Positions 2,666 to 19,090 are shown, counted from the stretch's first letter. The stretch: 64,000 nt of DNA from an uncultured bacterium (GCA_947176765.1 CAMWRX010000005.1:3771-67770), one strand, 5' to 3'. A program made the numbers and translations. The notes: generated by a model not told the origin, from the letters alone.

Positions 2666-4030
2666 TTATATAGTATCTTCCACGCTAAAATCCGACCTCA
2701 TATGCTTATGGTATTCCCACAGACAGACTGCTAAAGCGACTAAGGCTGCCGCTATATCGGCAACTGTGTGGGCAATAGCAATCCCAGCGAATCCCAAAAG
2801 ATTATGCATCAGATGCAGCGAAGGGATGAGGAGAACCCCCTGCCGCAGCACCGAGATGATCGTGGCTGACAAAGCATTGCCGGATGCCTGCAAAAAGTTG
2901 CAGCTCAAGTAATAGACGCCCAGCACTGGCCCGGCCAGCAGCAACCAAACCACCATTTGTTTCCCCAGGGCAAGGGCCTCCGGGTTTTGGAGGAATAGGC
3001 CGATGAGTGTATTTCTTGCCAGAGAACAGAGGACAGTCGTAGCAACACCAAATCCAGCCGTCAGTACCGCTAATTTTTGTAAGACTTCTTTGAGTCGGGG
3101 AATGTTGTGGGCACCATAATTATAGGCCATCAGCGGCTGAACACCCATGCAGATACCCATCTGAATCAGACTAACAGACATCGTTACTTTTCCAGCAGCT
3201 CCCATGGCCGCCTGAGCGTTATAACCATAGTTCAAAAGAAGATGATTGGAAAAAATGGAGGCGCTCCCTGACAAAATACTGCTCATCGCATTTGGAAACC
3301 CCAGGGCCAGTATATTGAGCAGAGCCTGTGGGTAGCGCAATGCATTCGATGGGACAAGGTTTAGAAGGCTGGCTTTGCAAAATACGAATCGGAGATAATA
3401 GGCTGCGGCTACCAAATTGCCGATGACAGTAGCCGCAGCCGCACCCGCCACGCCCAGCTTCAGCATCATGATAAATAGCGGGTCCAAAATCAGATTTACA
3501 GCGGTACCCACCAAATTGCCTATAAAGCCGTCCTTAACAGCACCTTCCGAGCGCAGCAGTGTGCCAAAGCCAGTGGCAAACAGCATCAGTGGCGCGCCAA
3601 TTGCCAGTGTGCGCATATATGCCCTGGCATCGGGTACCACCTCGGACAGGACACCCAGAAAATGCAGGAGGGGATCTGTAAACAGCAGAATGAGGACACC
3701 GCACAGCGAGCCAAACAAAATTGCTGCCCAGCCACACAGGCTGGCGCAGGTTTTCGCATAGTTCGTATCACCCGCACCTGCGGCTTTGGCAATGGTCGCG
3801 CAGCCTCCGACCCCGATCATTGTGGCGATAGCTGTGATGACCGAAAACACAGGGCCAACTACCGCAACTGCTGCCACAGGGGCGGAATCGGCCCCTCCCA
3901 GTTGTCCAACAAAAAACATATCTGCCATGTTGTAAAGAATCATGATCAGGATAGAAAACACAGACGGGACGGCCATAGTCAAAATCGCGTTCCAAACCGG
4001 TTTATCTCGAAATAGCGTCTCATTTTGCAT
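2666..4030 (-). CDS. MATE family efflux transporter
   Basis: About 12 hydrophobic segments, MAVPSVFS..YNMADMFFVGQL, NLILDPLFIMMLKLGVAGAAAATVIG; ATG 4030 with GGAGG RBS. Confidence 0.92.
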   Translation of the reverse strand: MQNETLFRDKPVWNAILTMAVPSVFSILIMILYNMADMFFVGQLGGADSAPVAAVAVVGPVFSVITAIATMIGVGGCATIAKAAGAGDTNYAKTCASLCGWAAILFGSLCGVLILLFTDPLLHFLGVLSEVVPDARAYMRTLAIGAPLMLFATGFGTLLRSEGAVKDGFIGNLVGTAVNLILDPLFIMMLKLGVAGAAAATVIGNLVAAAYYLRFVFCKASLLNLVPSNALRYPQALLNILALGFPNAMSSILSGSASIFSNHLLLNYGYNAQAAMGAAGKVTMSVSLIQMGICMGVQPLMAYNYGAHNIPRLKEVLQKLAVLTAGFGVATTVLCSLARNTLIGLFLQNPEALALGKQMVVWLLLAGPVLGVYYLSCNFLQASGNALSATIISVLRQGVLLIPSLHLMHNLLGFAGIAIAHTVADIAAALVALAVCLWEYHKHMRSDFSVEDTI

Positions 4031-4063
4031 ATTGTATCCCTCCTGCCACATATAAGGCGGAGC

Positions 4064-5086
4064 TTATCCGATTCCGCTTAGTTCTGTCAGCATTTTCTCC
4101 ACAACATCTTCGGAAAGTCCCAACATAGGTGCCAGCGCCTTAAAGGTCATGCCATAGGCACTCTTTGCTTGTTCATTACCAGAAAATCCAGGCAGATACT
4201 TTTCTACAATGGCAGCTCCTGTGCTGCTGTCCATAATAGCAGCAATGGTGCTGTTTGCGCTCAGCTTTTCGCCCGTTACCAGTTCCGGATGCTTCCAACT
4301 GGATACATTTTGGTGCCCGGCACTCAGGGCTCCATCTACCGGAATAGCCGCCCCAGTTATGTACCGAGCCAGGTCACTGGCAAGGAACAATGCAAGAGCC
4401 GCACACTCTGTCGGATCCCCCATACGGCCTGCGGGGCAGTCTGAGGCGAAAAAGTCCATGGCCTGCTGGGGCGCGTCCCCGAAAATGCTGGTTTTCGTGT
4501 AGCCCGGGCAGATGGCATTGACTGTGATCCCGTATTTGGCATAGTCGAGCGCCGCCGCCTTGGTCATCCCGACCACGCCAAATTTGGTGGCCGTATATAG
4601 TGCCTGCCCTTTTTGAGGCGTCAATCCCGCAATGGAAGCCACATTGATAAGGAACCCACCCTGGCTGTGAGACCGGAAGATCGCCTCGGCCCCATACTTC
4701 ATTCCAGCAAATACACCTTTGCTGTTCAGATCGAAGATTTTATCGTAGTCCCCCACCTCGTACTCATGCAGTGGTGTGCCGCCCATGCCGATACCTGCGT
4801 TGTTGACGACGCCGTCCAGCCTGCCATAGTGCTCTACGGCGGTCTTAACGAGCTGCTGGATATCGTCCGCACTGCTGCAATCAGTCTGCACAAAGACAGC
4901 CTCGCCGCCTTTCGCACAGATATCATCTGCCACGGCCTGCCCTTGCTCCTTGCTTCGGGCGGCGCAGACTACCTTCATTCCGTGCGCACCAAAGACCTTG
5001 GCTATCGCTTCACCAATACCGCGGCTTGCGCCAGTGACGATTGCCACTTTCCCTTGAACGCTGCTGAAATCCATAATCTGATCCAT
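4064..5086 (-). CDS. Classical SDR oxidoreductase with an extra ~70-aa C-terminal module
   Basis: TGASRGIG, NNAG, YTATK, VNAICPG; sequence continues beyond the usual SDR end (VDGALSA). Confidence 0.9.
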   Translation of the reverse strand: MDQIMDFSSVQGKVAIVTGASRGIGEAIAKVFGAHGMKVVCAARSKEQGQAVADDICAKGGEAVFVQTDCSSADDIQQLVKTAVEHYGRLDGVVNNAGIGMGGTPLHEYEVGDYDKIFDLNSKGVFAGMKYGAEAIFRSHSQGGFLINVASIAGLTPQKGQALYTATKFGVVGMTKAAALDYAKYGITVNAICPGYTKTSIFGDAPQQAMDFFASDCPAGRMGDPTECAALALFLASDLARYITGAAIPVDGALSAGHQNVSSWKHPELVTGEKLSANSTIAAIMDSSTGAAIVEKYLPGFSGNEQAKSAYGMTFKALAPMLGLSEDVVEKMLTELSGIG

Positions 5087-5153
5087 GTTGTAGCCTCCTC
5101 AAAATAGCCTATTTTAGAAGAAATCAGACGGCTGGTTGTTTTCCCGCCAGGTG

Positions 5154-5182
5154 TTGCTTTTAGTGGGTGACTTTAGTATAAT
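5154..5182 (+). promoter_or_regulatory. Putative sigma70 promoter for tetR; CGACA-N13-TGTCG operator-like repeat just downstream
   Basis: TTGCTT-17nt-TATAAT. Confidence 0.5.
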
Positions 5183-5274
5183 GTTCCTTGTCGGGACAGA
5201 CAACCGACAATATTTCAGGCCATGTCGAGTTTAGCAACATTGGTCCTGTTTCTGTTGCCGAAAGGAGCATCTCC

Positions 5275-5838
5275 ATGAGAAATGATCCACGTACCCGCTA
5301 TACTGAGATGATAATCAAAAAAGAATTTTTGGAGCTTTTACACCATAAGCCTATGAGTAAAATTACCGTGCGGGAGATCTGTGACCGTGCTGAGATCAAC
5401 CGGAGCACGTTCTATAAACATTATCTGGACTGCTATGATCTGCTGGACAAGCTCAAAGAGGAGACACTGACCCAGTTCGATGAGCTGATGGCCGGTATTG
5501 ACGGAAGCGGAGCGACACCAGCCCTTCTTGCCACCCTAAACGCATTGGAACAAAATGCGGAAACCTTTCAGCTGATCGCTCCGGGCAGCGGTGGAGGAGA
5601 GTTCACTCGTCAGGTAGTCCAGCGCTGCTATCAGTATTTAGACATGCGTTTTGCGGAATTGAATGAACGAGGCTGGGATAAGGGACAAAAGGAGACTTGC
5701 TATGCCTTTTTGATCGGAGGAATCAGCAGCGTCATTGAACGTTGGATGCAGTGTGGTTGCAAAGAGCCAGCGGAAGAAGTTGCCGCTACGATCATGAAAT
5801 TGAGCGAGATTATGACATCAGGACTAACTGAAAAATAA
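5275..5838 (+). CDS. TetR/AcrR family regulator, divergent from SDR-MATE
   Basis: KPMSKITVREICDRAEINRSTFYKHY HTH; ATG 5275 after GAAAGGAG. Confidence 0.92.
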   Translation: MRNDPRTRYTEMIIKKEFLELLHHKPMSKITVREICDRAEINRSTFYKHYLDCYDLLDKLKEETLTQFDELMAGIDGSGATPALLATLNALEQNAETFQLIAPGSGGGEFTRQVVQRCYQYLDMRFAELNERGWDKGQKETCYAFLIGGISSVIERWMQCGCKEPAEEVAATIMKLSEIMTSGLTEK

Positions 5839-5870
5839 ACGCAGGCAGGGGCTCCCCCTGCCTGCGTTTA
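5836..5870. terminator. Bidirectional terminator between tetR and GH1
   Basis: TAAACGCAGGCAGGGG / CCCCTGCCTGCGTTTA inverted repeat. Confidence 0.85.
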
Positions 5871-5877
5871 TTTATAC

Positions 5878-7167
5878 TTAGCCGCGGTAGCTGCCCAGAT
5901 AAGCCAGACTGGGCTTAGGTGTGCGGGTCTGGGTAGTCCGGTCTACGGCAATCAGGCCAAACTGCATACGATAGCCCATCTGCCATTCAAAGTTGTCCAT
6001 GAGACTCCAGTAGAAGTAGCCTTTTACCGGAATGCCGTCGGCAATACACCTTGCGACACCGTCAGCGGCAATTTGAATAAAGTTGACGCGGCGGGAATCG
6101 TCATCACAGGATACGCCGTTCTCTGTGACCATGATATTGCCACGGAAGTCTTTGGCCACAGCTCGGATCACGTGCTCCAGAGCCTGGGGATAATACTCGT
6201 ATCCCATCTGTGTACGCTCCGCACCGTCGGGTACGGGCAGATCCTCCTCGGGGCCGACGATGGTACGGGTATAGTTCTGCACACCCAGGAAATCGTCATC
6301 CTGGATGTAGGGAAGATAGTGCGTGAACTCCTCCGCCCAGGCGGCCTCAGCCCTGGCCTCGCCGCCCTCCACGGGCTGTATATCATGCAGGCTCAGGGTC
6401 AATCCGACCTGAATATCCGGGTACAGGTCATGAATGGCTTTCTTCGCCGCTTGGTGGGCTTTCATAGTCAGAAGATCGCTGTGCTCGCTCCCGCCCAGAT
6501 TGAAACAGTGGGGCTGGGGGGTGCCGAACACTTCCTCGTTCTCCATGGCCTGGAATTTCATATTCTCCATCATGGCCTGCATATTCAGGCCCATCTGAAC
6601 CTCCCCACCGCTGTTTTGAGCCCCTGCCGCGGCGGCTTTCTTCGCCATCATGGTGTAACGCCGTGAAATAGCGGCTACCTGAAGCCCCATGTTGGCTTCG
6701 TTGATGGTACACACATATTTGAGCTCACTGCCCAGCGCCTTAATCACATAGGAGGCATATTTCTCAAAATCTTCCACCACTGTATCCGCCTCCCAGCCGC
6801 CCTTGCGGATGATCCAGATAGGGCTGGAGAAGTGGAACAGCGTCACCACCGGCTCGATCCCATGCTCCCGGCAGCAGCGGATTACCTTTCGGTAATGCTC
6901 AATCTGCTCATCGTCAAATACGCCGTCCTCAGGCTGGATCCTGGCCCATTCAATGGAAAAGCGATAGGCGTTCAAACCGGCGGACTTCATCAGCTTGATA
7001 TCTTCCTCGTATCGGTTATAGTGGTCACAAGCAATGCCACTCTTGTCCTTATAAGTGGTATGAGGCATTTGCTCCATGGCCCAGCAGTCGGAATTGGTGT
7101 TGTTGCCCTCTACCTGGTGGGCAGCAGTGGCAGCGCCGATGAAAAAGTCGTTTTCAAATTTTTTCAT
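5878..7167 (-). CDS. GH1 beta-glucosidase/galactosidase
   Basis: GAATAAHQVEG, YRFSIEWARI, catalytic TINEAN and VTENG, YFYWSLMDNFEW. Confidence 0.93.
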   Translation of the reverse strand: MKKFENDFFIGAATAAHQVEGNNTNSDCWAMEQMPHTTYKDKSGIACDHYNRYEEDIKLMKSAGLNAYRFSIEWARIQPEDGVFDDEQIEHYRKVIRCCREHGIEPVVTLFHFSSPIWIIRKGGWEADTVVEDFEKYASYVIKALGSELKYVCTINEANMGLQVAAISRRYTMMAKKAAAAGAQNSGGEVQMGLNMQAMMENMKFQAMENEEVFGTPQPHCFNLGGSEHSDLLTMKAHQAAKKAIHDLYPDIQVGLTLSLHDIQPVEGGEARAEAAWAEEFTHYLPYIQDDDFLGVQNYTRTIVGPEEDLPVPDGAERTQMGYEYYPQALEHVIRAVAKDFRGNIMVTENGVSCDDDSRRVNFIQIAADGVARCIADGIPVKGYFYWSLMDNFEWQMGYRMQFGLIAVDRTTQTRTPKPSLAYLGSYRG

Positions 7168-7197
7168 GATATCAGCTCCTCAATTTTATTAGTCATG

Positions 7198-9456
7198 CTA
7201 GTTCAACTCGGCCAGAATGCCGCTGATCTGTTCATCCGTCATCCCTATAAACTTGGATACGGCATCCAAAGTCATGTCCATCATCATACTCTGCATCGTC
7301 TGCATACCGGCAGCGTCTGCTTCAATATCTCCATGCTGGCCTGCCGCTCCGGCGCTGAATTTCTGGAATATGTGTCCGATCAGCGTTTGGCCCTTCGGTG
7401 TGGCAAGGATCTGGCCAAAGGTGGAAAACTCGGTGAAGTGAACCGGTAGCGTGACCGTACCCTCTACAGTTACCTGCGCAGCCAGCCGGATATCCCGGCT
7501 AGAAGAACCGATTTCAATGGTAAAGGTCCCGCTCTCTACAAACCAGTCATGAATCTTCGGCTCATAATATGCAAACGCCTTTTTCCCCAGAGTAAAAGAA
7601 ACCGTCTTTTCCTCGCCTGGGGCCAACTCTACCTTTTCAAAGCCTTTCAATTCCCGCACTGGGCGGTTGACCCGGCTCTGCTCATCCCGGACATAGAGCT
7701 GGATGACCTCCTTACCAAGGCGAGTACCCGTATTTTTGACTTTGCAGGTCACGGTCAAAGATTCTCTATCAGTAAGTTGAGCTTTATCAAGCTGAATATC
7801 CCCGTACACAAAGCTGGTATAGCTCAAGCCGTGGCCGAAGGGAAACCTGACGGCCATTTTCTTTTTGTCGTAATACCGATACCCCACAAAGACACCCTCG
7901 CGGTACTCCACAATACCGTCCTCGCCAGGAAAATTAAGGAAAGAGGGGTTGTCCTCCAGCTTTATTGGGAAGGTTTCAGCCAGTTTGCCGCTGGGATTGG
8001 CTGTGCCGTACAGCAGATCCACTGCGGCCTCACCCACACCCTCGCCTCCGAGGTACAGTTCCAGGATGGCGGCGGCTTGATCTGCCCAGGGCATTTCAAC
8101 GGGGGAGCCGTTATGCAGAACCACCACCGTATTGGGATTGACCGATGCCACCGCCTCGATCAGCGCGTTTTGGTTGGCGGGCATTGCCATTGAGGTTCGG
8201 TCAAACCCCTCCGATTCATAGCTGTCTGGAAGCCCGGCAAAGATAACGGCGACATCCGCCCGCTTCGCGCACTCCGCGGCCCGCTCTAACAAGTCAGGAT
8301 TAGGTTCCGAAGTCTGAGCCAGGTAGCCTTGCGCAAAGGTCACGTTGAGTCCGGCTGCTTGGGCCGCTTCTACCGCTCCCACTACTTTGTGGGAATTGAT
8401 GTGGCTGCTGCCTGCCCCCTGATAGCGGGGAGCACGCGCGAAGTCTCCCAGGAAAGCCACCCTTTGCTCTTTTGACAGCGGCAGAATATCCCGCGCATTT
8501 TTGAGCAGGACCGCGCATTCCTCAGATGCATGCACGCTGCGGATATGGTCCGTCTCCAAATCCAGTTGGGCTTCAGGACGTCGGCCATCCATATAGCCTT
8601 TTATGTATGTTAGAATTCGGGATACCGTTTGATCAAGCTGCTCCTCAGGCAGCTCTCCGCTTTGAACCGCCGCCACGATTTTGGCCACCTGCTCCGGGTT
8701 GTCGCGGCCCGGCATCTCCAAGTCTACACCAGCGGCGATTCCTTTTACCCGGTCCTTCCCCGCACCCCAGTCGGTGACTACAAAGCCGTCAAAGCCCCAT
8801 TGATCCCGAAGAATTTCGGTGAGCAGTTCCCGGTTTTCGGAAGCATACACGCCATTGATCTGGTTATAGGAGCACATCATGCTTCGGGGCGCTGATTCCT
8901 TGACCATATCCTCAAAGGCGGAGAGATAGATCTCATGCAATGTGCGTTCATCAACCTCAGAGGAGCCGGACATACGCAGGGTTTCCTGGTTGTTGGCGGC
9001 AAAATGCTTGGGGCAGGCGGCGATCCCCTTTCCCTGCAGGCCATTGACATAAGCGGCGGCCAACTGTCCGGCCAGATAGGGGTCCTCAGAAAAATATTCA
9101 AAGTTGCGCCCGCACAGTGGGCTGCGTTTGATGTTCAGACCCGGCCCCAACAGCATGGAGACATCCTCCGCTTGGCATTCCTCACCTAAAACCTCACCCA
9201 GCGTATGAAGCAGAGAACGATCAAATGAGGCTGCCAGAGCTGCGGCGGTGGGGAAACAAACCGCTTTGATACTATCGTTGATGCCTAAGTGGTCAGCTTC
9301 TGCCCCCTGTTTGCGCAGCCCGTGAGGGCCGTCGCACATCATAACACTGGGCACACCTAAACGTTCCAGCGCTTTGGTATGCCAAAAATCCCCTCCAGAG
9401 CAGAACGCGGCCTTTTCTTCAAGGGTCATTTGTGAAAGAATATGTTCCACATCCAC
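7198..9456 (-). CDS. GH3 beta-glucosidase (BglX-like) with Fn3-like domain and extra C-terminal module
   Basis: CGRNFEYFSEDP, KHFAANNQE, VVTDWGA, FPFGHGLSYT; GTG 9456 after GGAGG. Confidence 0.93.
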   Translation of the reverse strand: MDVEHILSQMTLEEKAAFCSGGDFWHTKALERLGVPSVMMCDGPHGLRKQGAEADHLGINDSIKAVCFPTAAALAASFDRSLLHTLGEVLGEECQAEDVSMLLGPGLNIKRSPLCGRNFEYFSEDPYLAGQLAAAYVNGLQGKGIAACPKHFAANNQETLRMSGSSEVDERTLHEIYLSAFEDMVKESAPRSMMCSYNQINGVYASENRELLTEILRDQWGFDGFVVTDWGAGKDRVKGIAAGVDLEMPGRDNPEQVAKIVAAVQSGELPEEQLDQTVSRILTYIKGYMDGRRPEAQLDLETDHIRSVHASEECAVLLKNARDILPLSKEQRVAFLGDFARAPRYQGAGSSHINSHKVVGAVEAAQAAGLNVTFAQGYLAQTSEPNPDLLERAAECAKRADVAVIFAGLPDSYESEGFDRTSMAMPANQNALIEAVASVNPNTVVVLHNGSPVEMPWADQAAAILELYLGGEGVGEAAVDLLYGTANPSGKLAETFPIKLEDNPSFLNFPGEDGIVEYREGVFVGYRYYDKKKMAVRFPFGHGLSYTSFVYGDIQLDKAQLTDRESLTVTCKVKNTGTRLGKEVIQLYVRDEQSRVNRPVRELKGFEKVELAPGEEKTVSFTLGKKAFAYYEPKIHDWFVESGTFTIEIGSSSRDIRLAAQVTVEGTVTLPVHFTEFSTFGQILATPKGQTLIGHIFQKFSAGAAGQHGDIEADAAGMQTMQSMMMDMTLDAVSKFIGMTDEQISGILAELN

Positions 9457-9627
9457 AGAAGTCCCTCCTCCGTTAGATTGTGATTGCAGTATACAAAACT
9501 GGTGACGCCTTTGCGAACAAAAATTTAGAAACAAGTCCTAAAATTCACGGTCTTTTTCCAAGACAGAAAAACTGTGCGAATTTTAGAACCTACTTCTTGA
9601 TTTTTATACGCAAAAAGAAAAAGTCCT

Positions 9628-9636
9628 TGTTATAAT
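9628..9636 (+). promoter_or_regulatory. Extended -10 (TGnTATAAT) for the MFS transporter, no good -35; possibly AraC-activated
   Basis: TGTTATAAT about 55 nt upstream of the GGAGG RBS. Confidence 0.45.
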
Positions 9637-9692
9637 CGGGCCATCCAATTTCCAGCGACGCATGAAAAACAAAAATTTGAGGAGGAGCAAAT

Positions 9693-11183
9693 ATGTTTGG
9701 CAAAAACAAACCCAGCCAGAGCGAAATCGACGGCGTGCAGTACCGCCGCGCCAAGCTGTGGCAGATCATCCTGTACGCCTGCAACGGCTTTGTGGGCATG
9801 AGCGTCTACTCTCTCATTGGTATGGCCAGCTACAGCGCCAGCATCGGCTACGGCATCAGCACCATCGTGGTGGGCTATATCCTCACCGGCACCCGCATCC
9901 TGGACGCTGTCACCGACCCCCTGCTGGCCTTCCTCTATGATAAAGTCAATACCCGGTTTGGCAAGCTGCGAGTGCTGCTGGTGGGCGGCTTTGCCGTTGA
10001 AGCCGTTGCCCTGCTGTGTATGTTCAACTTTATGAGCAGCAAGGGCTTTGGCGTGGTAATGTTTACCTTGTTGTATGTAGTCTACGTTATCGGCTATACC
10101 ATCACCAACATGACTGCCCAGACCATCCCCGCCATCATGACCAACGACCCCAAGCAGCGCCCCCTCATCGGCGTGTGGACCACCGCGTTCAACTATCTGG
10201 TGCCCATGACCATGATGATCGTGCTGAATATGGTGCTGCTGCCCATGTTCGGCGGGCAGTATAATCAGGCGTTTCTCTCCACCGCCTGCTGGGTGTGCAT
10301 CGGTATGGGAGCTGTCGGCATCATCCTGGTGTGTATCGGCGTCAGCGCTTTCGACAAGCCGGAAAACTTCACCGGCGTCAGCAATAAGCGTGAACCCCTG
10401 AAGATTAAGGACATGGTGTCCGTCCTGAAGGGCAACCGTCCCCTCCAATGCTATATCGTGGCCCAGGCCACCGACAAGCTGGCCACCCAGACCAACTCCC
10501 AGTCCATCATCAACACCCTGCTGTTCGGCATCGTCATCGGCAATATGGGCATTGCCACCACTTTGCAGGCGGTCAGTATGCTGCCCTCCATCCTCTTTGC
10601 CATCCTGGGTGCCAGGTACGCCGGAAAGGTCGGCAGCAAAAAGACCATCGTCACCTGGAGCACCATTTCCATGGTGGTGGCGGTGGTGACCGTCCTGTTT
10701 TTCGTGGTCATCGACCCCAAGCAGATTGCCGTCATGGGCCCCATGATGATCATTTACGTAATCCTGAACCTGGCCCTCAGCGGCTCTATGATGTGCGTCA
10801 CCACCGGCAGCACCGCATTTATGGCGGACGTCATTGACTACGAGCTGGACCGCTCCGGCAAGTACGTCCCCGCCGTGGTCACCGGCGTGTACAGTCTCAT
10901 TGACAAGATCGTCTCCGCCTTCGGAGCCACCATTGCCACCGCCTGCGTGGCCCTCATCGGCTACACCGCCACCCTGCCCCAGCCCGGGGACGAGATGACC
11001 ACGGCGCTGTTCTGGATGACCATGTTCGTCAAGTTCGGTATGCCTATCCTGGGCTGGCTTGCCACCCTGGCCGCCATGCGGTTCTGTAAACTGAGTAAGA
11101 CGGAAATGGTGGAAGTGCAAAAGCGCATTGCGGAGAAAAAAGCCGCCGCCGTCCAGGAAGTGGCGAAAGAAAACCTGAAATAA
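9693..11183 (+). CDS. GPH-family (MFS_2) glycoside/sugar transporter
   Basis: ILTGTRILDAVTDPLLAFLYDK..TRFGKLR; MADVIDYE...VTGVYSLIDKIVSAFG; about 12 TM. Confidence 0.9.
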   Translation: MFGKNKPSQSEIDGVQYRRAKLWQIILYACNGFVGMSVYSLIGMASYSASIGYGISTIVVGYILTGTRILDAVTDPLLAFLYDKVNTRFGKLRVLLVGGFAVEAVALLCMFNFMSSKGFGVVMFTLLYVVYVIGYTITNMTAQTIPAIMTNDPKQRPLIGVWTTAFNYLVPMTMMIVLNMVLLPMFGGQYNQAFLSTACWVCIGMGAVGIILVCIGVSAFDKPENFTGVSNKREPLKIKDMVSVLKGNRPLQCYIVAQATDKLATQTNSQSIINTLLFGIVIGNMGIATTLQAVSMLPSILFAILGARYAGKVGSKKTIVTWSTISMVVAVVTVLFFVVIDPKQIAVMGPMMIIYVILNLALSGSMMCVTTGSTAFMADVIDYELDRSGKYVPAVVTGVYSLIDKIVSAFGATIATACVALIGYTATLPQPGDEMTTALFWMTMFVKFGMPILGWLATLAAMRFCKLSKTEMVEVQKRIAEKKAAAVQEVAKENLK

Positions 11184-11199
11184 TGCCGTCAGGCGCAAG

Positions 11200-11231
11200 C
11201 AAGGGCGTCCGCTTTCGGGCGGACGCCCTTG
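11200..11231. terminator. Hairpin between convergent MFS and araC genes
   Basis: CAAGGGCGTCCGC / GCGGACGCCCTTG. Confidence 0.75.
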
Positions 11232-11235
11232 GGAA

Positions 11236-12453
11236 TCAATTCGGCCCGGAGCATTGCCTTCGGAACTCCGCCGGAGACTGGCCAGTAACCTGCTTAAAGC
11301 TCTGGCTGAAGTGGCTGCGGGAGGAATAACCCAGCGTATCAGCAATCTCCCGAACGTCCTGGTCGGTGCTTTTCAGGAGTATTTTGGCCCGTTCCACCTT
11401 GGCAAATTTGATATAGTCATTGATGGAGAGGCCGGTTTCCTTATGGAACCGTTGTGTGGTATAGTATTCGCTGTACCTCGCCACGGCGGCAAGGTCGGCG
11501 GCGCGGATACGTTCGCCCAGGTGCATTTCGATATAGTCCACGCATTTCTGTACTACTGGGCTGAGCTTTGGGTTGGTGCGGCATTTGTGGACGCGATGGA
11601 CAAAGTCGTCGTACATGGTGAGGGCGGTGGCCGTCAATTCGTCCATTGTCCGGGCGTCCTCGCTCATTTGGATATAGGTGTCTCCTAAAGCATACGCTTC
11701 CTCGGGGGACAGCCCGCCCTCAATGGCGGCCCGGCAGACGATGGAGCAAAATACGGTGTTGGAGATTTTGCCGTACCGAAGCGGGTCACGGCTTCGGACG
11801 GGCACCCCGTTGGAGAGCGTTTGAGAGATATTCAGTGCACGTTGATAGTCCAAGTCCCCATTTTTGACCATTTGCAGCATAGCCTGCTCGGCAGACCAGA
11901 TCTTATGGCGGTCCTTATGTCCTGCGTGGGGCAGCGGACCGGACGATTCCGGCAAAGCCTGTATCCCAATATCACTGATCATCAAACGCTCCCCGGTTAA
12001 GCAGTAATGGAGCATCAGCAGATCCCGGCTAAATACGATATGGGGCACTGTCGGGATGCGATACAGCACGTCGATGAAATGATGCTTCCAGGCCATACCG
12101 GCCTCTACCCCAACATAAGTATCAAAACCTTCCCGAATGCTTTTCATACTGACATCCGTATAAAAGACTGGGCCGATGACCCACGCGTGGAAAGGCTGCC
12201 CATCCCTTTCCTCATAGGCCGCGCCCCAGACAAGAGATAACCCGCTGCCCAGGGTAATGGGGGTGGATTGCTCCCGCCAGTGCGCCATCATTTTCTCATG
12301 ACACCCCAGCACGGAAAATGCGGTGGACAGGATATTTTCGTCCGGACAGTTGCTCTCCAGCAGGGCGCCTTCCGCATCGTAACACCAGGTGTAGATTTCA
12401 TTGCCGCACTGGATCAGTTCCCGAAAAAGTTCCATGCTTTGGGCTACGTCCAT
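11236..12453 (-). CDS. AraC family regulator with N-terminal sensor region
   Basis: C-terminal double HTH (RIRAADLAAVARYSEYYTTQRFHKETG...IADTLGYSSRSHFSQSFKQVTGQSPAEFR); ATG 12453. Confidence 0.9.
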   Translation of the reverse strand: MDVAQSMELFRELIQCGNEIYTWCYDAEGALLESNCPDENILSTAFSVLGCHEKMMAHWREQSTPITLGSGLSLVWGAAYEERDGQPFHAWVIGPVFYTDVSMKSIREGFDTYVGVEAGMAWKHHFIDVLYRIPTVPHIVFSRDLLMLHYCLTGERLMISDIGIQALPESSGPLPHAGHKDRHKIWSAEQAMLQMVKNGDLDYQRALNISQTLSNGVPVRSRDPLRYGKISNTVFCSIVCRAAIEGGLSPEEAYALGDTYIQMSEDARTMDELTATALTMYDDFVHRVHKCRTNPKLSPVVQKCVDYIEMHLGERIRAADLAAVARYSEYYTTQRFHKETGLSINDYIKFAKVERAKILLKSTDQDVREIADTLGYSSRSHFSQSFKQVTGQSPAEFRRQCSGPN

Positions 12454-12684
12454 AATGCTCAACCACCTTTCCTGGTTTTCATTGTAGCATAGATTTTTAC
12501 GCAATGCACGATATTTTGAAAACCTCCAAACGTTACTTTTTGCGCGGATGTTGTTTTCCGAAACACAATCAGGAAAAGTGTTTCTTTTTTCGTCACGTGG
12601 TGTAAAATTGCTGGTTGCCGAAAAAAACGCCATGATTTACAATAGGTTTCAGATACCAATACAACCCCAAAGGAGCTGTTTGTT

Positions 12685-14877
12685 ATGCGTACCATTCTTT
12701 CCCTTAACGACAATTGGAAATTTTTCAAGGCCCCCCATCCGGAGGATACCGGAGATGAAATCGTCACCCTGCCCCACACCTGGAACGCCGTAGACGGCCA
12801 GGACGGCGGCAACGACTACCATCGGGGAACCTGCTGGTATGAGCGGAAGCTGTCCAAGCCCGAGCTGGAGGCTGGTCACCGGGTCTGGCTGGAGGTCAAG
12901 GGCGCGGCCATGACCGCTGAAGTGTATCTCAACGGCGAAAAGCTGGCCCGTCACGAGGGCGGCTACTCCACCTTCCGCGTGGACCTGACCGATCATCTGA
13001 AGGACGATAACGTGCTGGCCATTTCGGTGGACAACAGCGACAACGACACCGTCTATCCCCAGAAGGCGGACTTCACCTTCTACGGCGGCCTGTACCGGGA
13101 TGTGAACCTGATCGTCGTGCCAGCTGTCCACTTCGAACTGGGCTATTGCGGTACGCCGGGCATCAAGGTCACCCCTATCGTCGATTTGGAGAAACAGTCT
13201 GCCCAGGTGGCTGTGGAAGCTTGGGTGGAGGGCGACGCAAAGCAGGTCACATTCACCGTAGCGGGACAGATACAGACGGCGGTCCCTGCCCAGGGCCGCG
13301 CCCAGGCCGCTTTTACCATTGAAAACGTCCACCTGTGGGACGGTGTGGACGATCCGTTCCTCTATACCGCCTCCGCCGCACTGGACAGCGGGGATGAGGT
13401 CAGCGCCCGCTTCGGCTGCCGGAAGTTCGAGATCGACCCCCAGAAGGGTTTCCTCCTCAACGGCCGCAGCTATCCCCTGCGGGGCGGCTCCCGTCACCAG
13501 GACCGTCAGGGCGCGGGCAACGCCCTGACATTAGAGCACCACAAGGAGGACATGGCCATCATCCGGGAGCTGGGGGCCAACACCCTGCGGCTGGCCCACT
13601 ACCAGCACGCCCAGGAGTTCTATGACCTATGCGACGAGAACGGCATCGTCGTGTGGGCCGAGATCCCCTACATCACCATGCACATGAAAAATGGGCGGGC
13701 CAACACCCTGTCCCAGATGGAGGAGCTGATCGTCCAGTGCTATAACCACCCCTCCATCGCCGTGTGGGGGCTGTCCAACGAGATCACCGCCGCCAGCGCG
13801 GTCAACGAGGAGCTGCTGGAAAACCACCGGGCCCTCAACGACCTGTGTCACAAGCTGGACGCCACCCGGCCCACCACCATGGCGGACGTGTTCATGCTGG
13901 AAATCGAAAGCCCCATCCTGGAGATTCCGGACGTAAACAGCTACAACCTGTATTTCGGCTGGTATCTGGGCGAGCTGGAGCAGAACGACGAATTCTTTGA
14001 CGAATACCACGAGAAGTACCCCGACCGTTGCATCGGCTTCTCCGAGTACGGCGCGGACGCCAATCCCCAGTACCAGTCCGCCGCGCCGGAGAAGGGTGAC
14101 TACACCGAGAGCTACCAGTGCGTCTACCATGAGCATATGCTGGCCATGATCGAAGCCCGCCCCTGGCTGTGGGCCACCCATGTATGGAACCTGTTCGACT
14201 TCGCTGCCGACGGCCGGGACGAGGGCGGCAAGAACGGCCAAAACCAAAAGGGCCTGGTCACCTTTGACCGCCAGCTGAAAAAGGATGCCTTCTACCTCTA
14301 TAAAGCCGCATGGAACAAAACCGAGCCCTTTGTCCATCTGTGCGGCAGCCGGTATGTGGACCGGACGGAGGACGTGACAGAGATCAAGGTCTACTCCAAC
14401 CAGAGCGAAGTCAGCCTGTATGTGGACGGGCGGCTGTTAGCCAGCCAGACGGGCAGGACGGTGTTCAAATTCCAGGTGCCCATTACCGGGGAACACTCCA
14501 TCGAGGCCCGGTCGGGTTCCTGCTGCGCGGTCATGCTGGTACGGAAGGTGGATGCGCTCAATCCCGATTATGCGCTGCCCGGACGTGCAACGGTGGTCAA
14601 CTGGTTCGACCAGGGAGAGAACGACCCTACCTGCTTCTCCGTCAGCGACAAGCTGGGCGAGATCCAAGCCCACCCCCAGGCGGGGCCCATTATCAACCAA
14701 ATGATGGCTCAGGGCGCGGCCAGCCGGGGCGACGTGGCTACCGCTGTGAAGGACAACCCGGGTCTGGTGCGCATGATGGGACGTATGACGCTGCTCAGCC
14801 TGCTGAAGCAGAGCGGTGCGGACGCCGAAAGCATTCAGCAGCTTAACCGGGTATTGCAAGGCATCAAGAAATCGTAA
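12685..14877 (+). CDS. GH2 beta-galactosidase/beta-glucuronidase with extra C-terminal module
   Basis: LPHTWN, FYGGLYRDV, RLAHYQH, WGLSNE (acid/base), SEYGAD (nucleophile), NQKGLVTFDR. Confidence 0.93.
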   Translation: MRTILSLNDNWKFFKAPHPEDTGDEIVTLPHTWNAVDGQDGGNDYHRGTCWYERKLSKPELEAGHRVWLEVKGAAMTAEVYLNGEKLARHEGGYSTFRVDLTDHLKDDNVLAISVDNSDNDTVYPQKADFTFYGGLYRDVNLIVVPAVHFELGYCGTPGIKVTPIVDLEKQSAQVAVEAWVEGDAKQVTFTVAGQIQTAVPAQGRAQAAFTIENVHLWDGVDDPFLYTASAALDSGDEVSARFGCRKFEIDPQKGFLLNGRSYPLRGGSRHQDRQGAGNALTLEHHKEDMAIIRELGANTLRLAHYQHAQEFYDLCDENGIVVWAEIPYITMHMKNGRANTLSQMEELIVQCYNHPSIAVWGLSNEITAASAVNEELLENHRALNDLCHKLDATRPTTMADVFMLEIESPILEIPDVNSYNLYFGWYLGELEQNDEFFDEYHEKYPDRCIGFSEYGADANPQYQSAAPEKGDYTESYQCVYHEHMLAMIEARPWLWATHVWNLFDFAADGRDEGGKNGQNQKGLVTFDRQLKKDAFYLYKAAWNKTEPFVHLCGSRYVDRTEDVTEIKVYSNQSEVSLYVDGRLLASQTGRTVFKFQVPITGEHSIEARSGSCCAVMLVRKVDALNPDYALPGRATVVNWFDQGENDPTCFSVSDKLGEIQAHPQAGPIINQMMAQGAASRGDVATAVKDNPGLVRMMGRMTLLSLLKQSGADAESIQQLNRVLQGIKKS

Positions 14878-14888
14878 AGAGGGGCGTC

Positions 14889-16712
14889 ATGAAACAGACC
14901 TATTGCAATCCTCTGGACCTGGCCTACCGTTACCAGCACATGAAGGAGGGCCCGCAGATATGTGGCTTCCGGGAGGGGGCCGACCCCACCCTGGTGCATT
15001 TCAAGGGCTGCTACTATCTGTTCGTGTCCATGTCTGCCGGTTTCTGGCACAGCACGGATATGCTCAACTGGGAATTCCACGCCGCGCCTGATCTGCTCAT
15101 CTACGACTATGCGCCGGACGTGCGGCAGATGGGGGACTACCTCTATTTCTGCGCCAGCCGCCGGGATGAGAACTGCCCCATCCTGCGCACTGCCGACCCG
15201 CTGACGGAGAAGTTCACCGAAGTCTCCGCCCCCTTCGACTTCTGGGACCCGGATATCTTCTGCGACGACGACGGACGAGTGTACCTCTACTGGGGCTGCA
15301 CCAACACAGACCCCATCTACGGCATTGAGCTGGATTCGGAAACCATGACGCCCATCGGTGAAAAGCGGGAGCTGATTTTCGGCCGCGACGAGGAGCTGGG
15401 CTACGAGCGCCCCGGCGACAACGGCGTAGTGGACAGGGAACACAGCGTGGTGTATCAGCACCTGCGCAAGAGTTTCAATCCCATCACGCAGAAGATCGAG
15501 TTCCCCGCTGGGGCGGAGCGGATAGGCAATTACACCGCCGAGGCCATGACAAAAATGTTCCTTTCCATTGGAAAGCCCTACATCGAAGGCGCGTTCATGA
15601 CCAAGTACCAGGGGCGGTACTATCTGCAATACGCCTGCCCCGGCACCCAGTTCAACACCTACGCCGACGGCGTGTACGTGGGTAACCACCCCCTGGGCCC
15701 CTTTACCCTGCAAACGGCTAATCCCTTCTCCTCCAAGCCCGGCGGTTTCATCACCGGGGCGGGCCATGGCAGCACCATCGCCGACCAGTACGGGAACTAC
15801 TGGCACGCTTCCACCATGCGCATCAGCGTCAACTACGACTTTGAGCGCCGGGTGGGCCTGTTCCCAGCCGCGTTTGACAAGGACGGCGTGCTGTTCTGCA
15901 ACCAGAACTTCGCCGATTACCCCTTCAAGATTCCCCAGGGAAAATTTGATGCCGCCGCCCTGGAGCCGGAATGGATGCTGCTCAGCTACAAAAAGCCGGT
16001 GATGGTGTCCTCCACCGCCTCGGGTAGCAGCGGGTCGAATGCGGTGGACGAGGACATCCGCACTTGGTGGAGCGCCGCTTCCGCAAAGGAGGGCGAATGG
16101 CTGTGTGTCGATCTGGGTAAGTCTGCTGATATCCGGGCTATCCAAGTAAACCTGGCGGACGAGAACGTGGTGGTGGACTTCCCAGCGGACAGCTACGGCG
16201 ACACCCGAAAGACCCGGCACATTGAACTGGAACCTCAGATTTCCCACTATACCGTGGAAGTCAGCAATAACGGCGACAACTGGCATACCCTGGAGCAGGT
16301 GGATCGGGAGTGCTCCAATGGCTACTACGAGTACATGGACGGCGTGACCGCCCGCTATGTGCGGGTGAGCGGGGGCGCGCTGCCCTACGGCCAGCCCCTG
16401 CGCGTCAGTGGCCTGCGGGTGTTCGGCAATGGGGACGGGGAAAAGCCCGCGCCCGCTCAGGCAACTGCCGTCCGGCTGGGGGATCTGGACGCACGGGTGG
16501 TGTGGGAGCCCATCCCCGGCGCTCAGGGGTGCAATGTGCGGTACGGCATCGCCCCCGACAAGCTGTACCACAGCTGGCTGGTATATGATGCCAACGAAGT
16601 CACCCTGTCCACCCTCATCAAAGGGCAGACGTATTTTGTTCGGGTGGACAGCTTCAATGAGAATGGGATCACCCCCGGAGAGGTCATCCTGATGAAAGAG
16701 GCAGCACTATGA
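14889..16712 (+). CDS. GH43-like glycosidase with F5/8 (CBM32-like) and Fn3 domains
   Basis: GADPTLV, WDPDIFCDDDG, YIEGAFM, GAGHGS; AVDEDIRTWW..WLCVDLG discoidin-like domain. Confidence 0.85.
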   Translation: MKQTYCNPLDLAYRYQHMKEGPQICGFREGADPTLVHFKGCYYLFVSMSAGFWHSTDMLNWEFHAAPDLLIYDYAPDVRQMGDYLYFCASRRDENCPILRTADPLTEKFTEVSAPFDFWDPDIFCDDDGRVYLYWGCTNTDPIYGIELDSETMTPIGEKRELIFGRDEELGYERPGDNGVVDREHSVVYQHLRKSFNPITQKIEFPAGAERIGNYTAEAMTKMFLSIGKPYIEGAFMTKYQGRYYLQYACPGTQFNTYADGVYVGNHPLGPFTLQTANPFSSKPGGFITGAGHGSTIADQYGNYWHASTMRISVNYDFERRVGLFPAAFDKDGVLFCNQNFADYPFKIPQGKFDAAALEPEWMLLSYKKPVMVSSTASGSSGSNAVDEDIRTWWSAASAKEGEWLCVDLGKSADIRAIQVNLADENVVVDFPADSYGDTRKTRHIELEPQISHYTVEVSNNGDNWHTLEQVDRECSNGYYEYMDGVTARYVRVSGGALPYGQPLRVSGLRVFGNGDGEKPAPAQATAVRLGDLDARVVWEPIPGAQGCNVRYGIAPDKLYHSWLVYDANEVTLSTLIKGQTYFVRVDSFNENGITPGEVILMKEAAL

Positions 16713-16781
16713 CGGATAAAGCTGTCTGTCAGTCTGCGGGTGTTACAAAGTATCAAAAGTCTGTGCGAAGGAGATGTTCCC

Positions 16782-18215
16782 GTGAATAAGCTGATTTTTA
16801 ACCCTATTCTACCCAGTTGGGAGTACATTCCCGATGTGGAACCCCGCATTTTCGGAGATCGTTTATACCTTTATGGCAGTCATGACCGATTTGGTGGCTC
16901 AGATTTCTGCATGAATGACTACGTGGGCTGGAGCGCCCCACTGAAGGATTTGAGTGATTGGCGGTATGAGGGTGTGATCTACAGTCCCAAGGCAGACCCT
17001 GCCAACGTCGACGGAAATCAAAATGGCTTTGCCCCGGACTGCGTTCAGGGATCAGATGGTCGGTACTATTTATATTATTGCCTGCACCGCAGCTCTACGA
17101 TTTCGGTGGCGGTATCAGATACTCCTACTGGTCCTTTTGCCTATTATGGGAAGGTGCAGAATAAAGACGGCAAGCCTTATGGCGGTGAGGGCAGCATTTT
17201 CGGTTTTGACCCCGGCATTTTGATGGACGATGGTCACATTTGGTTGTTTGCCGGGTTCGCCGCCCGCGAACCCATGCGGACTTACATGAAGGCCGGAGGG
17301 ATGCTGGTAGACGGCAGCTACTGTGTGGAGCTGGCCCCGGATATGCTGACAGTGCTCACCCAACCTACACTGGTGCTACCTGGCGAGGCCGTGTCAGCGG
17401 GTACCGGGTTCGAGGGCCACGCCTTCTACGAGGCCAGCAGTCCCCGAAAAATCGGTGACCGGTACTATCTTATCTATTCAAGCCAGCGTAGCCATGATCT
17501 CTGCTATGCCGTCAGTGACAGGCCAGACGGCGAGTATACCTACGGCGGCATTTTGGTCAGCATTGGGGACATCGGCTTGCGGAACGAAGCGGATGCAATC
17601 AACTATCTGGAAAATACCCACGGCGGCATGGTGGAGCTGAGTGGCCAGTGGTATGTGTTCTACCACCGCCAGACCAACCGAAGCCGTTATTCCCGCCAAT
17701 GCTGCGCAGAACCGCTGCAGATTTTGTCGGACGGCAGCATCACACAGGCGGAAGTCACCAGCTGTGGGCTGAACGGTGGTCCGCTGCCGGGACGCGGCAG
17801 CTATCCCGCTTACATCGCTTGCAACCTATCATCTGCGCATGGTATCTGCTCTTACACCGACCCCGAGAAGATCGGACCTGAGCATCCCTATTTTACCCAG
17901 AGCGGTGGTGACCGTGAAAGGGATGGCGACCAGTATATTGCTAATCTGCAAGACGGAACTTGGACCGGATTCAAATACTTTGCGTATATCGGGGACGAAA
18001 AGTCTATCTCTGTCACAGTACGGGGCAACGCTTTCGGTACGCTCTGTGTGTCCACAGCGCAAGGTGGCGTTCCTGTTGTAGAGATCCCGATTACCGTCTC
18101 AACCGATTGGACGCGGTTCTCCGCCCCGTTGACTATGGTACCGGGCATTGCGCCGCTGTACTTCACCTATCATGGTGATGGTGCCATAGATTTCGCCGCA
18201 TTTGACATCGAATAG
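16782..18215 (+). CDS. GH43 xylosidase/arabinosidase-like enzyme with C-terminal CBM6-like domain
   Basis: YIPDVEP, YLYGSHD, FAPDC, FDPGI, FYEAS, NTHGG; GTG 16782 after GAAGGAG. Confidence 0.85.
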   Translation: MNKLIFNPILPSWEYIPDVEPRIFGDRLYLYGSHDRFGGSDFCMNDYVGWSAPLKDLSDWRYEGVIYSPKADPANVDGNQNGFAPDCVQGSDGRYYLYYCLHRSSTISVAVSDTPTGPFAYYGKVQNKDGKPYGGEGSIFGFDPGILMDDGHIWLFAGFAAREPMRTYMKAGGMLVDGSYCVELAPDMLTVLTQPTLVLPGEAVSAGTGFEGHAFYEASSPRKIGDRYYLIYSSQRSHDLCYAVSDRPDGEYTYGGILVSIGDIGLRNEADAINYLENTHGGMVELSGQWYVFYHRQTNRSRYSRQCCAEPLQILSDGSITQAEVTSCGLNGGPLPGRGSYPAYIACNLSSAHGICSYTDPEKIGPEHPYFTQSGGDRERDGDQYIANLQDGTWTGFKYFAYIGDEKSISVTVRGNAFGTLCVSTAQGGVPVVEIPITVSTDWTRFSAPLTMVPGIAPLYFTYHGDGAIDFAAFDIE

Positions 18216-18229
18216 GAGGTTGGTTCATT

Positions 18230-19078
18230 ATGCCAATTAAAGCTGTCCAGCAATTCATGCTGGGCTCCGTGATGAACAACGAGGCCCAGGCCAGGGACGT
18301 TTTGCAGAAAATGAAGGAGGCTGGGTATGGCGGCATTGAGCTGTGCGGGTTTATGATCCATCCCACCGGCCTGATGGTGCGCCTGATGACCAAAGCTGCC
18401 GGTATGCCTGTGGGCAAGGGCGGCAAGCTGGACTGGAAGGGCATCGTGAAGGATTCCGGCCTCCAGGTGGTGAGCCTGCACACCGATCTGGGCAGTGTCG
18501 AGCGGGATGCCGCCACAGTGGCCGCCGAGGCAAAGGAGTTTGGAACCAAGTACGCGGTCATCACTGGGATGTACCGCTTCGCCTATGGGGACGAGGCCGT
18601 CATCCACGATTTGGCGGCGCGGCTGAACAAGGCGGGCGAGGCACTGAAAAAAGGCGGCGTCGACCTACTCTACCACAACCACAACTGCGAGCTCCAGCGG
18701 GTCAGCGGGGACAAGCGGGCCTATGATATCCTGTTGGAGGAGACCGACCCGGCTTTTGTCAACTTTGAGTTCGATAGCTATTGGTTCGCCGACGGTGGGG
18801 CCAACCCGCTGACCTGGATGGAGCGGCTGGGAGCGCGCATGAAGCTGTGGCACATCAACGACCGGGGGACGCGGCTCTCCGGCCCGGCCATGACGCCCAT
18901 CCTGAACAGCGACAGCATGGAGCTGGGCACCGGCAATCTGCCGTTGGAAGCGCTGGCCCAACAGGCCAAGGCAAACGGCATTGAGGCGGTGATCCTGGAG
19001 AGCCATCGCAACTGGATCGACAAATCCCCGGTCAAAAGCCTGGAATTGAGCGCAAAGTGGCTCAACCGACATTTTTAA
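18230..19078 (+). CDS. Sugar phosphate isomerase/epimerase (xylose-isomerase-like TIM barrel)
   Basis: GYGGIE, LLYHNHNCE, FEFDSYW, WHIND, ELGTG. Confidence 0.88.
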   Translation: MPIKAVQQFMLGSVMNNEAQARDVLQKMKEAGYGGIELCGFMIHPTGLMVRLMTKAAGMPVGKGGKLDWKGIVKDSGLQVVSLHTDLGSVERDAATVAAEAKEFGTKYAVITGMYRFAYGDEAVIHDLAARLNKAGEALKKGGVDLLYHNHNCELQRVSGDKRAYDILLEETDPAFVNFEFDSYWFADGGANPLTWMERLGARMKLWHINDRGTRLSGPAMTPILNSDSMELGTGNLPLEALAQQAKANGIEAVILESHRNWIDKSPVKSLELSAKWLNRHF

Positions 19079-19090
19079 GGAGGGAGCCTT

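Follow-up and report, generated by a model that had tools for sequence, protein, structure and literature searches.

The window analyzed here is a 64,000-nucleotide stretch (contig C5:3771-67770; CAMWRX010000005.1 of GCA_947176765.1) from the genome of an uncultured bacterium, which comprises 2.67 Mb in 122 contigs. It contains a gut-bacterial glycoside-utilisation locus that codes for a MATE transporter, a short-chain dehydrogenase/reductase (SDR), a TetR regulator, glycoside hydrolases (GH) of families 1 and 3, a transporter of the MFS_2 or glycoside-pentoside-hexuronide (GPH) type, an AraC regulator, a GH2 enzyme, two GH43 enzymes, a TIM-barrel protein and a GH78 enzyme. We focused on a small helical module that forms the C-terminus of the SDR, the GH3 and the GH2. 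All three open reading frames (ORFs) and their tails were found where a first-pass annotation of this DNA had placed them, and none of the three sequences has a signal peptide.

The three enzymes have unrelated folds. The SDR gene (4064-5086, minus strand) codes for a classical oxidoreductase of 340 residues, of which 13-252 match Pfam adh_short/adh_short_C2 (adh_short, E=4.5e-56). The cofactor motif TGASRGIG and the NNAG motif are present, and the Ser-Tyr-Lys catalytic triad (S151, Y164 and K168) does not vary among 112 homologues. Its module, a short-type copy of about 73 residues placed by hhalign and a leave-out profile, occupies residues 268-340 of the protein (P0001; 4067-4285, minus strand). 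The GH3 gene (7198-9456, minus strand; 752 residues from a GTG at 9456) is of the beta-glucosidase type. Its ORF is open to a TTG at 9534, and Pfam recognizes Glyco_hydro_3, Glyco_hydro_3_C and an Fn3-like domain (609-679). A long-type module of about 82 residues follows directly after the Fn3-like domain at the extreme C-terminus (residues 697-778 of P0002; 7201-7446, minus strand). The GH2 gene (12685-14877, plus strand) codes for a beta-glucuronidase (GUS) of 730 residues, in which the GH2 domains are followed by a weak match to DUF4982 (564-598). The tail profile and an AlphaFold2 (AF2) model place its long-type module, about 83 residues, at 648-729 (14626-14874, plus strand).

The first-pass annotation had proposed that these three tails are one module, a claim that pairwise comparison scarcely reveals. 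The tails share only 17-28% identity. BLASTP aligned the GH3 tail with the GH2 tail (E=5e-5, 28% identity) and gave no match between the SDR and GH3 tails. Single-sequence phmmer searches with each tail against all six-frame ORFs of the genome returned only the query itself, and a k-mer homologue search with the GH3 tail found only three close GH3 relatives. A profile built from the three tails produced 23 C-terminal matches in 14 of 60 related genomes; the hosts were GH2 orthologues (17), GH3 enzymes (four), the SDR and one 396-residue BD-FAE-type alpha/beta-hydrolase. We then had sets of tails that could be compared profile to profile, with 20 diverse sequences in the SDR-tail alignment. The resulting hhalign probabilities were 92-98% (E from 5.6e-7 to 2.3e-12): 97.7% for GH2 against GH3 tails (E=2.3e-12), 95.8% for SDR against GH3 tails (E=8e-9) and 92.3% for SDR against GH2 tails (E=5.6e-7).

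Cross-validation against the 27,429 six-frame ORFs of the window's genome gave the same answer. The GH3 tail was detected by a GH2-only profile at E=4e-7, the GH2 tail by a GH3-only profile at E=1.6e-6, and the SDR tail, at E=2e-4, by a profile devoid of any window sequence; no other match in the genome did better than E~0.1. By this profile search the three tails are the sole fused copies in the genome, and all alignments were colinear and C-terminal. When 1.84 billion cluster representatives were searched exhaustively with a profile, 659 reached E<=1e-3, of which 135 reached E<=1e-10; most are fragments of GH2 and GH3 enzymes. The weak or absent pairwise BLAST matches and the self-only phmmer results are what one would expect if Ala-, Met- and Leu-rich helical tails resembled one another by chance or composition. 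That explanation is refuted by the cross-detection of the tails by independent profiles as the only significant matches in the genome, by the hhalign probabilities and by the size of the family recovered in the exhaustive search, and we consider its probability negligible. Profile-profile comparison and cross-validation thus confirm that the C-termini of the SDR, GH3 and GH2 are homologous, and they are best explained as copies of one old module that folds on its own.

The module was initially described as uncharacterised. This description does not hold, since a link between GH2 and GH3 enzymes through this domain is already in the literature: domain 4 of the GH3 enzymes PSTG1 (8J9F) and BglB (7MS2) is this same module, and the module also forms part of the C-terminal domain (CTD) of the Rh3 GUS (7KGZ). 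Searching PDB sequences with a mixed tail profile matched residues 651-733 of 7KGZ (E=6e-29) and the C-termini of 8GES/8GET and 6MVH (~1e-9), 6MVG and 6MVF. This profile did not include the 7MS2 sequence and still found residues 677-754 of BglB (E=2e-5); PSTG1 8J9F was matched weakly (E=0.35). A broader GH3-tail profile recovered residues 698-779 of 8J9F (E=1.3e-12) along with the GH2 tail of 7KGZ (E=3.8e-8). The host enzymes showed matching relationships. The closest PDB relatives of the GH3 are 8J9F, 7MS2 and 5WAB, with 8J9F and 7MS2 nearest in the core. Using phmmer, the GH2 aligned end to end with 7KGZ (residues 1-729, E=0; E~1e-243 for 6MVH and 6MVG), and it keeps the equivalents of Rh3 F406 and Y430. 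By homology, the module is the C-terminal lid (domain 4) of the beta-glucosidases PSTG1, whose substrate is sesaminol glucoside, and BglB and the helical part of the CTD in GH2 beta-glucuronidases that bind flavin mononucleotide (FMN). The window GH2 is, on the same grounds, a full-length orthologue of Rh3.

These relatives supply what has been published on the function of the domain. Domain 4 of PSTG1 reportedly lies over the active site of the partner protomer and creates a hydrophobic cavity, as Yanai and colleagues are said to have described in 2023. In PMC13003327, the 'C-terminal lid domain' of PSTG1 (Yanai et al. 2023, J Biochem 174:335) is cited as 'hypothesized to be involved in aglycone recognition'. 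The 7KGZ structure is that of the FMN-binding Rh3 GUS from Roseburia hominis, whose CTD is 'critical for processing TCS-G' (triclosan glucuronide); deleting the CTD lowers turnover of this substrate, Rh3 mutants including the deletion were reported to be unchanged in structure, and the CTDs of these enzymes are mobile and not resolved in crystals (PMC8748916). In models, the GUS CTD sits beside the glucuronate site, 'likely... closing over the active site' (PMC11353122), and AlphaFold models place it 'flanking the enzyme active site' (PMC9377255). A June 2026 preprint, 'Expanding the GUSome', defines 'Class 5' GUS enzymes by DUF4982 plus a small helical domain that resembles the C-terminal domain of 7MS2 by Foldseek, and describes the function of that domain as 'not yet elucidated'.

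The module exists in two forms. The short form of about 68-73 residues, to which the SDR tail belongs, follows the pattern 'S-T-I-A-x-I-M...I-V-E-K-Y-L-P-G-F...A-Y-G-M-T-F-x-x-L-A-P-M-L-G-L...L-x-x-L'. The long form of the GH2 and GH3 tails, about 83-90 residues, contains a Met-rich insertion that is absent from the short form. In the window GH3 the insertion (MQTMQSMMMDM) is much richer in Met than in PSTG1 and BglB. When a short-type alignment, made from the SDR tail and repeats from other proteins, was compared with the GH3 tails (97.1%) and the GH2 tails (95.9%) by hhalign, the insertion appeared as a single gap. What had first been read as a variable Met-rich linker is instead this long-form insertion, which AF2 models as two short helices. 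With a family alignment, AF2 predicted the GH2 tail to be a compact domain of six short helices (predicted local distance difference test, pLDDT, 89; predicted template modelling score, pTM, 0.75). The full-length SDR model has a confident core, a linker at residues 250-270 with pLDDT 55-59 and a folded tail with pLDDT 74-92. Foldseek matches to this model comprised SDR cores only, which indicates that no SDR with such a tail has been solved.

We found the module on many other proteins. The proposal that it is portable and autonomous is borne out by its presence on the unrelated SDR, GH3 and GH2 folds here, on five further hosts elsewhere and as a stand-alone gene. The further hosts are a BD-FAE esterase, a GH78 enzyme, an apiosidase-like GH, a solute-binding lipoprotein and a ferredoxin. 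The lipoprotein (P0106) carries two copies N-terminal to its Peripla_BP_6 binding domain, the ferredoxin (P0134) carries three, and the GH3 enzymes P0090, L031 and L043 carry two each. In P0116, a protein of 1630 residues, a run of modules lies between a GH78 rhamnosidase and a BD-FAE esterase; five copies can be made out by eye, of which hmmsearch places three above its domain threshold. This metagenome representative may be a natural fusion of two enzymes directed at rhamnosylated phenolic esters. We did not count as architectures several metagenome representatives with the look of chimeras or fused gene calls, namely P0135 (an ABC-2 membrane segment joined to a GH3 end), P0113 (an unrelated N-terminus) and the truncated GH2 forms P0038 and P0063. 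Of the hosts, nearly all are enzymes for small glycosides or phenolic esters (GH2-GUS, GH3, GH78, apiosidase-like and BD-FAE enzymes).

We also sampled genomes at the level of the class. A short-type profile matched in 26 of 400 genomes of the class, on GH3 and GH2 enzymes, a GH78 (L048), an apiosidase-like enzyme (L052) and two adjacent proteins of 420 residues with no assigned function, and it also found 18 stand-alone module ORFs of 68-101 residues. The same profile had no match in a sample of 400 genomes that belong to the phylum but lie outside the class. One stand-alone relative lies in the window's own genome (C6:55010-55192, plus strand; L053). It is a protein of 72 residues related to the short type (E=7e-7) and flanked by an unassigned gene of 298 residues and a serine dehydratase alpha-chain gene, and similar small proteins in other Clostridia ('MDLRNGQITVGELL...') match no Pfam family. 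Other stand-alone copies are found beside GH39 and alpha/beta-hydrolase genes (L026) and after an MFS_1 gene (L030). Pfam found nothing on the three tails alone even at E<=10, and when the tails and the stand-alone copies were scanned with Pfam and NCBIfam, no family covered the module. What appears to be new is the recognition of a single portable family, its fusions to SDR, esterase, GH78 and apiosidase-like enzymes, its presence/absence polymorphism, and split pairs of an SDR and a module.

The SDR family illustrates how the module is kept, lost and separated from its host. More than 100 clusters at 68-90% identity keep the tail, single clusters (formed at 90% identity) hold up to 6,076 member sequences, and the fusion is abundant in gut metagenomes and always neighbours TetR and MATE genes. 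Orthologues without a tail, 74-86% identical to the window SDR (74-83% at L077 and L078-L081), break off immediately after 'WKHPE'; Lachnospiraceae bacterium 3-1 has one, as do metagenome-assembled genomes (MAGs) of Lachnospiraceae and Oscillospiraceae. One of them, in an uncultured Oscillospiraceae MAG (L077 3001-3858), retains a truncated remnant that stops within the module's first helix ('...GADSTIAGTH', then a stop) and has the look of tail decay. A third arrangement is found in two other Clostridia genomes (L050 622-1707 and L034 626-1716, both plus strand), where an SDR gene is followed directly by a stand-alone module gene of 70 residues that has a GGAGG ribosome-binding site of its own. 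The SDRs of these pairs share just 25-26% identity with the window SDR. Taken together, the fused and the split forms argue for physical cooperation between the module and the catalytic domain, and for an ability of the module to provide it as a separate chain.

The remaining genes place the three enzymes in a setting of small-glycoside use. A MATE efflux transporter gene (2666-4051, minus strand) adjoins the SDR gene, and a TetR-family regulator gene (5188-5838, plus strand) lies on its other side; this MATE-SDR-TetR trio is kept elsewhere. A GH1 glycosidase gene (5878-7167, minus strand) has no module match. The GH3 and GH2 genes are separated by genes for the MFS_2 transporter of the GPH type (9693-11183, plus strand) and an AraC-family regulator (11236-12633, minus strand). 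Downstream of the GH2 gene (14889-21301, plus strand) are a GH43 with an F5/8 domain, a second GH43, a xylose-isomerase-like TIM barrel and a GH78 rhamnosidase, with no module on any of them. Orthologues of the tailed SDR are found in a syntenic block with the order GH2(+tail)-GH43-TIM-barrel-GH1-TetR-MATE-SDR+tail-RhaD/RhaA/RhaB-GH78-AraC. This gene content suggests that rhamnose, glucose, glucuronate and pentoses are stripped from small conjugates in the cytoplasm, and that the TetR/MATE/SDR unit may sense, modify and export the aglycone that is released.

Some details of the locus genes deserve mention. The database form of the GH3 (P0004) has 752 residues and implies the GTG at 9456 as the start of the 7198-9534 ORF (minus strand), which opens at the TTG; this GTG is probably the true start, with the first 26 codons (LFLNFCSQRRHQ...) left untranslated. 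The best NCBIfam match to the GH3 is the equivalog NF041610, 'exo-alpha-(1->6)-L-arabinopyranosidase', which spans residues 35-771, including the tail region, and scores 819 bits, under its cut-off of 1300. With this as its best match, the enzyme may have a true sugar specificity other than glucose. The TIM-barrel gene (18230-19078, plus strand) codes for 282 residues with an AP_endonuc_2 domain and is kept beside GH43 and GH1 genes in both the window and L074. Xylose-isomerase-like TIM-barrel proteins are subunits of C-glycoside deglycosidases in other gut bacteria.

We favor a model of the module as a tethered lid over the aglycone side of an active site, closing either in cis or across an oligomer interface, and judge this reading to be reasonably probable. 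Homology and modularity come from the sequences compared here, and lid position, cavity and the effect of CTD deletion come from the literature. The compact helical fold, the range of hosts and the conserved synteny of the locus also speak in its favor. A flexible linker would tether the module to the catalytic domain and allow it to close over the active-site entrance of its own subunit or of a partner in the oligomer. There it would add a hydrophobic wall, a flexible surface rich in Met, Leu and Phe, on the aglycone (+1) side of the pocket. Such a lid could tune its host to small-molecule conjugates with bulky hydrophobic aglycones as opposed to polysaccharides, and a module borne by an SDR may cap the substrate cleft likewise. 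By analogy, the window SDR, GH3 and GH2 would share this role, the SDR being the enzyme for which the analogy reaches furthest. That the three copies are found so near one another may reflect a locus devoted to the import, deglycosylation and disposal of small plant or xenobiotic glycosides. The first-pass annotation had listed the binding of a shared hydrophobic aglycone among several possible functions, and this idea agrees with published views on the PSTG1 lid, as cited in PMC13003327, and on the FMN-GUS CTD (PMC8748916, PMC11353122).

Several observations weigh against this lid model. The lid role of PSTG1 is itself a crystallographic inference. The GUS CTD that was deleted, about 150 residues, also contains a DUF4982-like beta domain, and its effect is therefore not assignable to the helical module alone. 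Comparing the isolated module with the PDB by Foldseek gave nothing significant (E>2); the top matches were PSTG1 chains (TMq 0.59), and 7MS2 was not retrieved. The lack of a significant match is likely due to disorder of the domain in GUS crystals. Finally, the lipoprotein with two copies, the ferredoxin with three and the GH78-esterase with up to five fit a simple lid poorly. A pure lid does not readily explain these proteins and tandem arrays, and they keep alive the view that the module assembles proteins.

According to that view, the module is mainly a protein-protein interaction element, stabilising homo-oligomers or joining the module-bearing enzymes of a locus, along with stand-alone copies, into a complex, and any catalytic effect would be indirect. 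Yanai and colleagues are said to have reported in 2023 that the PSTG1 lid acts across the dimer interface, which would suit such a role. Module genes often cluster (three within 11 kb in the window, a GH2 and an esterase 5 kb apart in G021, three adjacent in G415), stand-alone module genes beside SDR genes imply non-covalent association, and tandem arrays join two enzymes in P0116 and decorate a binding protein in P0106. However, GH2 enzymes, GH3 enzymes and classical SDRs oligomerise without the module, close SDR orthologues lack the tail altogether, and deletion of the Rh3 CTD was reported to leave the structure unchanged (PMC8748916). In most genomes the copies are dispersed over different contigs. 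The 17-28% identity among the window tails also indicates that each evolved with its own host and not towards a common partner. We regard assembly as the main function as unlikely on this evidence. Still less likely, in our view, is a role of the module in anchoring cytoplasmic enzymes at the membrane or at the neighbouring MATE and GPH/MFS transporters, such that substrates are processed on entry or aglycones passed to the exporter. Transporter genes do flank module genes here and in the syntenic loci, one stand-alone module follows an MFS_1 gene (L030), and the helices are amphipathic and Met-rich. The module nevertheless has no transmembrane or lipid-binding signature and is a compact globule in AF2 models, PSTG1 and the GUS enzymes are soluble proteins, crystallised as soluble dimers, and docking would leave the effect of CTD deletion on in vitro kinetics unexplained (PMC8748916). 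Docking is improbable in light of these properties.

The remaining proposal concerns ancestry. The first-pass annotation had likened the module to a Cys-less DUF1858/ScdA_N domain, and a degenerate member of that family might have kept a redox, metal or small-gas role. The module does resemble DUF1858 (PF08984) and the ScdA_N domain of YtfE/RIC in size, in its N-terminal 'T-I-G-E/D-I-L...P' helix and in its C-terminal '...L-L-x-x-L-N' helix. YtfE (ScdA_N) and 2K5E were among the weak Foldseek matches (TM 0.43-0.48, E>2), the ferredoxin P0134 matched DUF1858 at E=0.003 with 17.9 bits against a gathering cut-off of 32.2, and the short-type profile was colinear with the family over 60 columns in hhalign. 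We compared the module with 20 genuine DUF1858 genes from the window genome and its relatives, and hhalign probabilities were only 0.2-18%. Neither the three tails nor ten stand-alone copies had a DUF1858 match in Pfam at E<=10. Genuine DUF1858 proteins have an H-C-x-G-C segment (MHCLGCP), whereas the module has no conserved Cys or His and lacks the CxxC/His region, with an insertion in its place. Their genomic and fusion contexts also differ. Moreover, the window genome has its own, clearly distinct DUF1858 gene (C29:9676-9837, plus strand; L066) with the MHCLGCP segment; of the 41 genomes searched, made up of the window genome and its relatives, 37 have a single gene of this kind. With hhalign not significant (<=18%), Foldseek at E>2 and no Pfam match above threshold, homology is unsupported. 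We rejected membership in the DUF1858 family, and descent from it with a retained function is highly improbable.

The aglycone-lid model can be extended, with less assurance. The module could be a general, transferable lid that also acts in trans as a subunit of about 70 residues and that Clostridia attach to enzymes gripping small hydrophobic substrates. We put this broader version forward tentatively, as a possibility that may well prove wrong. If it is true, the hosts of a transferable lid would include at least five glycosidase families, feruloyl-type esterases, SDRs and binding proteins. Finding the module in a genome would in that case point to enzymes for drug conjugates and plant glycosides, as opposed to polysaccharides, and removing or swapping it would re-target specificity.

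The module is of practical interest as well. FMN-binding glucuronidases with this CTD are among the gut enzymes that reactivate the glucuronides of triclosan, mycophenolate and regorafenib. The GUS CTD is thought to set substrate preference, and its helical part has never been seen in a GUS crystal. Equating this part with the structurally resolved lid of PSTG1 and BglB provides a template for modelling the GUS domain. More generally, a module with at least nine host types that can be lost or encoded by a separate gene has no database model, and a hidden Markov model of it gives a handle on enzymes that process small-molecule glycosides and xenobiotics in metagenomes.

Several known systems can be set beside the module. 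Loop 1 of the Loop-1 GUS enzymes, such as E. coli GUS, has been proposed as a functional analogue that is mobile, closes over the aglycone side and sets specificity for small-molecule glucuronides (PMC11353122). Loop 1 is, however, a loop of 15-20 residues inside the TIM barrel that is neither autonomous nor portable, and it is not homologous to the module. The FMN-binding No-Loop GUS enzymes (7KGZ, 6MVF/6MVG/6MVH) are true relatives that align with the window GH2 over its full length and have a homologous tail. Their published CTD of about 150 residues merges the beta domain with the helical module, unlike the unit defined here, and the literature on them draws no link to enzymes other than GHs. 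PSTG1 from Paenibacillus sp. KB0549 (8J9F/9LQL) and BglB (7MS2) resemble the window GH3 in both core and tail, with the domain likewise placed after an Fn3-like domain. The literature on these two enzymes treats the domain as a peculiarity of a GH3 subgroup, whereas we find it also on GH2, SDR, esterase and GH78 enzymes, on other hosts and as a free-standing gene.

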